Source: a virus
Lineage: Duplodnaviria > Heunggongvirae > Uroviricota > Caudoviricetes
Strand: one strand, 5' to 3'
IMG/VR virus record: IMGVR_UViG_2648501787_000015
Span: 1-3,583 of that record
Length of the DNA: 3,583 nucleotides
Made by a program: the position numbers and the translations under genes
In this document: piece by piece, positions 1,623-2,937 of the stretch
Position numbering within the stretch: the stretch's first letter is position 1
How the letters are laid out: every line of letters starts with the position of its first letter
Notes under the pieces: generated by a model
Database searches by the model: none
Told to the model about the DNA's origin: nothing
Seen by the model: only the letters and a program-made list of their open reading frames with translations

Positions 1623-2153
1623 ATGGAACTCAGAAATGTTACACGTTACCACCCTGAAGATATGCCTTATGGTGAAGGCATTCAGTATTTCCGCAGTGAA
1701 GACGGACAGGATTTTTATGAATCCATGGACAAATTCACGAAGAGATACAAATTGTGCATTCACCCTGAAAGCGGCGTGATTTATTCAATGGCGGAAGACG
1801 TGTCCCGTCTTTATCCGACAGGTTTCACCATTGTGGAAGTTGATGAACTGCCGGAAGGTTTTGGCATTGAAGCCAGTTGGTATTACAAAGACGGCGAAGT
1901 GCTGCCGGTTCCTGTTGATTATTCGCAACTGGCAGAAAAACAACGCCAGCATCTGCTGACTGAAGCAAAGGACGTCACCTCCGACTGGAAAACCGAGCTG
2001 GAGCTGGGCGTCATCAGTGATGACGACAAAGCTCGTCTTGCGCAGTGGATGGCGTATATCAAAGCGGTAAAAGCGCTGGATTTAAGCGCCGTTACTGATG
2101 AAGCCTCCCTTAATGCCATCAGCTGGCCGGAGCATCCCGATGCCGCAGCTTAA
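1623..2153 (+). CDS. tfa: Tail fibre assembly protein (chaperone), Tfa / Mu U / P2 G family
   Basis: Strong RBS AAGGAG at 1611-1616 with a 6-nt spacer before ATG 1623; the ORF-track start at 1587 has no RBS and lies inside the upstream gene. The C-terminal region W..ELELGVISDDDKARLAQWMAYIKAVKALDLS....ISWPEHP matches the conserved Tfa C-terminal signature (LGIIS, W..Y..V...D.S, WPE.P) recalled for Mu U, P2 G and lambda Tfa. Position immediately 3' of a tail-fibre gene is canonical. Confidence 0.8.
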   Translation: MELRNVTRYHPEDMPYGEGIQYFRSEDGQDFYESMDKFTKRYKLCIHPESGVIYSMAEDVSRLYPTGFTIVEVDELPEGFGIEASWYYKDGEVLPVPVDYSQLAEKQRQHLLTEAKDVTSDWKTELELGVISDDDKARLAQWMAYIKAVKALDLSAVTDEASLNAISWPEHPDAAA

Positions 2154-2610
2154 AGGTGTGATTAAAACGCCCACAGGAGAACCGCTGGGCAGCACAACCA
2201 TCACGCTGACCTCCCTGCACAACCGTGCAGGGATTCTGAAAGGTGTTTTCAGCCACGTCACTACACAGAGCGGGGAGTACGACTTCCCCGTCATGCCGGG
2301 CGTGTACAGCGTTCGCCTGACACAGAGTACACAACGCCTTTCAGAAATCGGTGTCATTCGTGTTTATGAAGATTCACAGGACGGTTCGCTTAACGATTTT
2401 TTGTCGGTGACAGAGGCAGATTTGCGCCCTGAATCTCTTAAAAAGTTCGAAGAGATTGCAATGCAGATACAAAAAAGTGCGGAAAGTGTCAGATTATATG
2501 CAGAGGAGGTGAAACGGGATTGCGCAATTACCCTCGAAAACAGAAAACAGACAGAGAGACTGCTGTCCCTGATAGCAGAGCCTCTTTCTCAGAGTGCCGC
2601 AGAAAGCTGA
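2140..2610 (+). CDS. Side-tail-fibre N-terminal (virion anchor) domain protein, 156 aa; either a stand-alone anchor module or a truncated stf remnant
   Basis: ATG at 2140 with GGAG at 2129-2132 (7-nt spacer); the start overlaps the tfa stop (2151-2153) by 14 nt. MPQLKGVIKTPTGEPLGSTTITL...GEYDFPVMPGVYSVRL...IGVIRVYEDSQDGSLNDFLSVTEADLRPESLKK parallels the lambda Stf N-terminus as I recall it (MAVKISGVLKDGTGKPV...ITVYEDSQPGTLNDFLCAMTEDDARPEVLRR). The ORF ends at TGA 2608-2610 without any fibre shaft or distal domain. Confidence 0.6.
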   Translation: MPQLKGVIKTPTGEPLGSTTITLTSLHNRAGILKGVFSHVTTQSGEYDFPVMPGVYSVRLTQSTQRLSEIGVIRVYEDSQDGSLNDFLSVTEADLRPESLKKFEEIAMQIQKSAESVRLYAEEVKRDCAITLENRKQTERLLSLIAEPLSQSAAES

Positions 2611-2751: not shown

Positions 2752-2937
2752 ATGGACTCTGTTCGCTGTAAAAACTGCAATAAGTTACTGTTTAAAGGAG
2801 GTTTTAAGCATATAGAAATTAAATGCCCTCGCTGTAAACGTTACATTGTCATATCGAATGCCAAAGAGCATCCCACGGAGCTGTATTGTGGGAAAAGAGA
2901 AGAAATCACGCATTCTGACAAAACCCTGCGTTATTGA
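2752..2937 (+). CDS. com: Com, zinc-finger translational activator of mom (Mu Com homologue), 61 aa
   Basis: RBS AGGGGG at 2742-2747 before ATG 2752. The protein [61 protein letters not shown] is nearly collinear with phage Mu Com as I recall it ([62 protein letters not shown]), including the CxxC...CxxC zinc knuckle. Its 3' end overlaps the next gene in another frame, as in Mu. Confidence 0.9.
2872..2892 (+). promoter_or_regulatory. Translation-inhibition hairpin (TIS-like): CCCAC / GTGGG stem sequestering the GTG start of mom, with the GGAG Shine-Dalgarno in the loop
   Basis: CCCAC at 2872-2876 is the reverse complement of GTGGG at 2888-2892; t2871 and a2893 can add a sixth pair. The loop is GGAGCTGTATT (2877-2887). 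GTG at 2888 is in the mom frame. This is analogous to the Mu mom TIS hairpin opened by Com. Confidence 0.45.

Follow-up and report, generated by a model that had tools for sequence, protein, structure and literature searches.

The Mom protein is toxic to the host, and the expression of mom is a textbook example of layered control. The GUG start codon of mom in phage Mu was reportedly established by Hattman and by Wulczyn and Kahmann in 1991. Com is an RNA-binding protein that activates the translation of mom (PMC6483171, PMC3378877). In Mu, a short Com-binding hairpin lies just 5' of a "translation inhibition structure" (TIS) that holds the GUG of Mom in its stem, and SELEX together with SHAPE defined a loop motif, CC(N)2-3GAG, whose closing C-G pair is invariant and whose GA is critical (PMC6483171). 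The same study gives the sequence of the native 19-mer Com target of Mu, describes the motifs as "partially overlay[ing]" the TIS, and proposes a role for the disordered C-terminal tail of Com (PMC6483171). Binding of Com to RNA and Com-dependent translation of mom are known only for Mu and for the Com of H. sputorum (PMC6483171).

The window, meaning the whole 3,583-nt stretch of DNA that was analyzed, is the right end of a Mu-like prophage of E. coli. Prophages 98.4% identical to it are present in 22 complete E. coli genomes, and from position 2762 onward it shares about 88.6 to 88.8% identity with phages Mu, D108, and SfMu; the DNA 5' of 2762 is unalignable with Mu. It encodes a tail-fiber assembly protein (Pfam PF02413) and a tail-fiber N-terminal domain (PF08400), and the gene order runs from the tail-fiber genes to com at 2752 to 2937 and then to mom, whose final base is 3583. 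The com product, with its zinc-ribbon cysteines at positions 6, 9, 25, and 28, matches Pfam PF10122 (Zn_ribbon_Com; 30.5 bits against a cutoff of 22.9) and carries a Com-family annotation in a near-identical E. coli prophage (L004); a PDB search with Com returned only chance zinc-finger matches. The mom product matches PF25680 at 254 bits and PDB 8bv8, "Methylcarbamoylase mom," with E = 1.3e-155, and NCBIfam gave no match to Com or to either version of Mom. The two genes overlap by 50 nt, with the com stop lying 47 nt beyond the mom GTG. At the protein level Mom is 97% identical to Mu Mom and Com 72.6% identical to Mu Com, which, with the unalignable DNA 5' of 2762, suggests on sequence grounds a recombination junction within com. 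The divergence between the two Com sequences is found mostly in the 5' half of com (window 2752 to 2830 against Mu L001 391 to 470).

Several other features of this end of the prophage can be described. At the place of Mu's invertible G segment and gin, window positions 2140 to 2610 hold only a 156-aa ORF for a tail-fiber N-terminal domain (PF08400), which the near-identical E. coli record (L004, NZ_AP045825) lists as a truncated pseudogene; in that genome the prophage end adjoins irp1 (yersiniabactin synthase). No sigma-70-like promoter was found on the + strand 5' of com in the window. A perfect 11-nt inverted repeat, GACGATCGATA-N6-TATCGATCGTC, with two GATC sites within it, occupies 2651 to 2678 and is followed by AATATCCCCA (2701 to 2710), an arrangement kept in 32 window-type loci. 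The Pmom region of Mu carries three GATC sites followed by ATTATGCCCCAATAA. The layout of 2651 to 2710 thus resembles that of Mu's Dam/OxyR sites and C-activator box, though the sequences are unalignable.

We consider it highly probable that window positions 2856 to 2893 form the Com-responsive translational operator of mom in this Mu-like E. coli prophage, where Com would bind the hairpin, the TIS would open, and a 231-aa Mom would be made from the GUG. The element is the already described com-mom translational operator of Mu, found in a close relative, and its biology is already known. Its parts and the two genes that it joins are as follows.

2752..2937, + strand: com, 61 aa, ATG 2752 to TGA 2937, encoding a CCCC zinc ribbon (ORF list and Pfam)
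2856..2874, + strand: equivalent of the Com-target 19-mer, GAAUGCCAAAGAGCAUCCC against GAAUGCCUGCGAGCAUCCC in Mu, differing only at the three N of CC(N)3GAG
2858..2871, + strand: predicted Com-binding hairpin, AUGC 2858-2861 with GCAU 2868-2871, loop CAAAGA 2862-2867, at -30 to -17 from the start codon
2871..2893, + strand: TIS (translation inhibition structure), core CCCAC 2872-2876 with GUGGG 2888-2892, outer pair U2871-A2893
2877..2880, + strand: Shine-Dalgarno GGAG, 7 nt before the GTG, aligned with the Mu RBS in AF083977
2888..3583, + strand: mom read from its probable GTG start, 231 aa and a stop codon, encoding a GNAT DNA-modifying enzyme of the Mom family

Direct reading confirmed each of the five motifs from which an earlier note on this DNA had argued for a start codon buried in a hairpin (ATGC 2858-2861, GCAT 2868-2871, CCCAC 2872-2876, GGAG 2877-2880, and GTGGG 2888-2892). 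That note had suggested a comparison with the Mu mom leader, and over the aligned element (GAATGCC...GTGGGAAAAGAGAA) the only differences between the window and Mu are in the loops, three bases in that of the small hairpin and four in that of the TIS. The AUGC/GCAU stem of the Com hairpin, the UCCCAC/GUGGGA stem of the TIS, the Shine-Dalgarno GGAG, its 7-nt spacing, and the GUG are all identical, and hairpins, Shine-Dalgarno sequence, and GTG match those of D108 and SfMu as well. The loop of the Com hairpin is CAAAGA in the window and CUGCGA in Mu, the changes falling at the three free N of CC(N)3GAG, and the loop of the TIS is GGAGCUGUAUU against GGAGAAACAUU. The window hairpin at 2858 to 2871 reads CC-AAA-GAG and thus has the published CC(N)2-3GAG loop motif with its C-G closing pair.

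The start-codon hairpin predicted in the earlier note was recovered when RNAfold was run on 2840 to 2910, where it is closed by U2871-A2893 and comprises six Watson-Crick and two G.U pairs. It is also part of the minimum free energy (MFE) structure of the 209-nt and 301-nt contexts, with a pair probability of 0.98 in a 131-nt context and of 0.64 to 1.0 across 18 representatives. The two G.U pairs (G2877.U2887 and G2878.U2886) are optional in the RNAfold prediction and allow the first two G of the Shine-Dalgarno sequence to join the stem, so that GGAG, which had been placed in the loop, lies there in its third and fourth bases but not necessarily in its first two. The 4-bp hairpin at 2858 to 2871 has an energy of -2.4 kcal/mol and is out-competed in context, with a probability of about 0.01 to 0.02. 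In MFE structures of 131 to 301 nt, UUGUCA and GAAUGC (2846-2861) pair with GCAUUC and UGACAA (2910-2921) and enclose the TIS; this helix ties up the 5' side of the Com hairpin, lowering the hairpin's probability to about 0.01, and occurs in window-type relatives and partly in L051. It was dropped as a part of the mechanism, being absent from the MFE structure of Mu.

Compared with chance, the energy of the 71-nt fold is unexceptional (z = -0.45), and a scan for 23-nt hairpins of -8.5 kcal/mol or lower counted 14 in the window and 8.75 in dinucleotide shuffles, leaving the energy of the TIS unremarkable. Because these results show the TIS to be thermodynamically ordinary, we set energy aside as evidence, and the case beyond chance rests on conservation, covariation, and identity with the studied Mu element. 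A cmscan search of the whole window against Rfam (E <= 1) yielded only a spurious snoRNA match elsewhere, and the element is in no Rfam 15 family.

To the comparison with Mu we can add covariation, which we assessed among 209 loci encoding Mom relatives gathered from viral and genome collections. Thirty-six distinct leaders retain CCCA(C/U)...GTGGG and have its GTG in frame with mom, and 20 remain distinct after loop trimming; from the untrimmed sequences of these 20 relatives RNAalifold predicted exactly the Com hairpin and the TIS and nothing else. Compensatory changes were seen at all four pairs of the Com hairpin (AU/GC/GU, UA/CG, GC/AU, and CG/UA), and pair counting found 95.6% of cells paired, compared with 23 to 56% when the partners were slid. 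The earlier note had thought the small 5' hairpin a possible part of a Com target and had doubted a stem of 4 bp; the four compensatory pairs settle that doubt in its favor, and the proposed role agrees with the published Mu model. The five core pairs of the TIS are invariant in the 20 relatives except for a single C-to-U substitution, which preserves pairing as U.G, and since they otherwise never vary the core cannot be tested by covariation. The core also lies in the com reading frame (His-Pro-Thr / Cys-Gly), and it is retained even though the enclosed loops are unrelated in sequence and vary in length from 11 to 20 nt. The outer pair does covary (UA in 11 relatives, CG in 8, and UG in 1), and its changes fall at synonymous third positions, His CAU/CAC in com and Gly GGA/GGG in mom. 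U2871 can pair with A2858 in the Com hairpin or with A2893 in the TIS and covaries with both (AU:8/GC:7/GU:4 and UA:11/CG:8/UG:1), counts behind which stand few independent events.

In the wider family, the 120 nt upstream of Mom were scanned for hairpins that fit NNNC-[C N2-3 GA]-GNNN. Of 91 distinct loci with com, 71 have one, where shuffles lead to an expectation of 1.2; of 24 loci in which com was not detected, 2 do. The stems of these Com-type hairpins comprise dozens of different sequences. In Desulfovibrio, Azospirillum, Pseudomonas, and others the hairpin is located at -30 to -17 (+/- 3 to 5 nt) relative to the predicted start, matching the register of 2858 to 2871 before GTG 2888, and in most distant loci the com stop falls 30 to 60 nt beyond the mom start. 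A second Com-type hairpin at about -54 to -42 was observed in 14 distant loci (the L066-L128 set). A coding sequence for mom with no com detectable upstream (about 100 nt 5' of mom) was found in L052, L055, L056, L176, L177, L180, and L186. Most of these have a GATC-rich leader (e.g., TTGATCTGTTAAATCGATCAT) directly 5' of an ATG start, L052 being without one; all seven lack the CCCAC/GTGGG hairpin and are therefore apparently under different regulation.

Measured against mononucleotide shuffles, the start regions of the distant loci were more structured, with a mean z of -1.86 and a start-codon pairing of 0.70 versus 0.54 (Wilcoxon p = 8e-4), statistics that derive from automatically picked start codons and phylogenetically non-independent loci. 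In 26 of 35 distant loci the MFE structure pairs the start codon with a strand that the hairpin overlaps, which suggests, as far as the folding models go, that the Com hairpin and the start-codon helix are mutually exclusive folds there. In many distant lineages the same nucleotides serve in both structures, and Com could therefore capture an alternative fold; forcing the Com hairpin in the distant loci lowered start-codon pairing from 0.70 to 0.58 on average, a modest effect. We tentatively raise the possibility, which at present we doubt somewhat more than we credit, that the Com hairpin and a start-sequestering helix make up a position-locked, protein-responsive translational switch across many com-mom loci of Proteobacteria, the lineages in question including Enterobacterales, Desulfovibrionaceae, Rhodospirillales, and Pseudomonas. 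We found no comparative description or Rfam family for such a family-wide com-mom switch. In Mu and in the window the Com hairpin and the TIS have a single nucleotide in common, U2871, which may be a vestige or a pivot of an alternative-fold toggle.

We hypothesize that, in the com-mom mRNA of the window, GUG 2888 and part of the Shine-Dalgarno GGAG (2877-2880) are locked in a TIS of 6 to 8 bp such that binding of the 30S subunit would be blocked. The 4-bp hairpin at 2858 to 2871, immediately 5' of this structure, would present the CC(N)3GAG motif through its loop and closing C-G pair. By analogy with Mu, the zinc-ribbon Com made from the overlapping upstream ORF of the same transcript would bind this hairpin, upon which the TIS would open and the 231-aa Mom would be translated from the GUG. 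The present sequences provide the anatomy, its identity with Mu, the covariation of the Com hairpin and of the outer TIS pair, and the assignment of the start codon by comparison among relatives. Binding of Com to RNA and activation of mom translation are taken here from the Mu literature, and the opening step is one that we infer. The idea, already put forward in the earlier note, of a hairpin block on translation that Com releases accords with the published Mu model (PMC6483171), the stem being identical to that of Mu. When the Com hairpin was forced in silico it cost 0.8 kcal/mol in the window and the start codon stayed fully paired, and opening therefore needs more than capture of the hairpin. 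A simple alternative-fold mechanism is not claimed for the window, as forcing the Com hairpin was without effect in the window or in Mu. Opening would probably proceed through Com contacts that reach the CC of the 5' strand of the TIS (the GAGCAUCC motif, whose last two C form the first two TIS pairs) or through the C-terminal tail of Com. U2871, able to close either hairpin, may be part of the link between Com binding and the TIS, and translation of com through the TIS may help in cis.

The proposed operator places the start of mom at GTG 2888, and we regard it as very unlikely that Mom instead starts at ATG 2858, which would give a protein of 241 aa with the hairpins inside its coding region and no start-site switch. 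The mom frame contains GTG 2888, ATG 2858, and TTG 2846, each of which also falls inside com. ATG is the commonest type of start codon, the ORF is open back to 2846, an in-frame TGA immediately precedes the corresponding ATG in Mu, and the equivalent of ATG 2858 is used for mom in the GenBank records of D108 (L002) and SfMu (L003) and in the PGAP-annotated E. coli record NZ_AP045825. However, the ATG itself belongs to the 5' arm of the Com hairpin, and the earlier note was right that neither it nor TTG 2846 has a Shine-Dalgarno sequence, with anti-Shine-Dalgarno duplexes of +1.2 and +0.9 kcal/mol compared with -5.8 kcal/mol for the GTG; across relatives the values are -3.1 to -8.7 kcal/mol for the GTG versus +0.6 to +2.7 kcal/mol for an ATG or GTG at -30. 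The -30 codon is ATG in some relatives only and GTG in others, with GCG or GCA elsewhere. Three relatives have in-frame stops between the -30 position and the GTG (L050 at -15, L045 and L065 at -6) that cut this position off from the conserved Mom sequence, and two others (L174 and L054) are without any in-frame start 5' of the GTG. No in-frame start other than the GTG occurs in all 21 sequences or has a Shine-Dalgarno sequence, and Mom protein homology starts at the N-terminus that the GTG encodes. The Mu reference record (AF083977) likewise begins the mom CDS at the GTG in this position of the alignment and marks the corresponding GGAG as the RBS. In the crystal structure 8bv8, which begins M-VGKEKK, residues 2 to 232 align with residues 11 to 241 of the ATG-start translation, and biochemical and structural work on Mom, including its residue numbering, uses the 231-aa GTG-start protein, as does the Mu literature. 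We considered whether the report that "Delta10 Mom is active" (PMC13219725) reflects the difference in length between the ATG and GTG forms and rejected this, the numbering there being from the 231-aa protein. The view that the listed ORF begins too far upstream and that the GTG in the stem is the real start is thus supported, as judged by its Shine-Dalgarno pairing, the upstream stops in three relatives, and agreement with the published Mu model. The ATG-start annotations in the PGAP record, D108, and SfMu are probably 10 codons too long. Close homologues of Mom have predicted lengths of 226 to 257 aa, and start calls are inconsistent among databases.

The complementarity could in principle be incidental, a product of overlapping frames (com ...HPTE..CGK and mom MGK) and chance hairpins with no regulatory role, and the ordinary energy (z = -0.45; 14 hairpins of this stability where shuffles have 8.75) and the five invariant core pairs, which lie in coding sequence and carry no covariation signal, are what such an explanation would have in its support. 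Yet synonymous third positions change together, both at the outer pair of the TIS and in all four pairs of the small hairpin, the Pro codon CCC keeps its last base in 20 distinct sequences with diverged flanks and loops, and the stem is maintained over the whole range of loop lengths. The hairpin motif also follows the presence of com (71/91 versus 2/24), and the near-identical Mu RNA has published structure probing and Com binding; we therefore judge an incidental origin extremely unlikely. A different account keeps the operator and changes what works it: the TIS would be opened mainly in cis by ribosomes translating com (translational coupling), which is compatible with opening by Com. The layout is favorable to this, with com covering both hairpins before it ends past the GTG, a similar position of the com stop in most distant loci, and a TIS that stays closed when the Com hairpin is forced in silico. 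Against it, Com given in trans activates mom, and a sequence-specific hairpin motif that is conserved and tracks com would be needless for pure coupling. The literature, moreover, has Com as an RNA-binding activator of mom translation (PMC6483171, PMC3378877). We consider coupling improbable as the main route and prefer Com binding as the event that would free the mom start.

The element constitutes the translational layer of mom control, and it contains nothing new for Mu biology. Its value for annotation is that the ATG at the equivalent of 2858, from which at least one PGAP E. coli record and those of D108 and SfMu begin mom, is really the 5' strand of a Com-binding hairpin. The comparative data provide support from natural sequences for the form of the Com-target hairpin and for the SELEX motif, and they would permit the construction of an RNA family for the com-mom element.

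Among known systems, the locus is like the com-mom of Mu (Hattman; Wulczyn and Kahmann; Nowacka et al. 2019, PMC6483171) in its gene order and in the overlap of com with mom. It is unlike Mu in that the region 5' of com cannot be aligned with Pmom and in that no gin or G segment precedes com; the window Com is also one residue shorter than Mu Com and diverges in its N-terminal half. Hairpins that sequester a start site until a trans-acting protein or translation from upstream opens them are a general class, exemplified by the coupling of coat and replicase translation in RNA phages. The window element resembles this class in burying a Shine-Dalgarno sequence and a start codon in a local stem to be freed by a specific event, and it differs in having a dedicated 61-aa zinc-ribbon activator that is encoded on the same mRNA and would bind an adjacent hairpin rather than the blocked site. 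A comparison with Tat-TAR of HIV, which has been drawn for Mu (PMC6483171), holds insofar as each system pairs a small protein with a short hairpin bearing a specific loop or bulge motif. Tat-TAR, unlike the element in the window, acts on transcription elongation in a eukaryotic virus, with no homology to it and no sequestration of a start codon.
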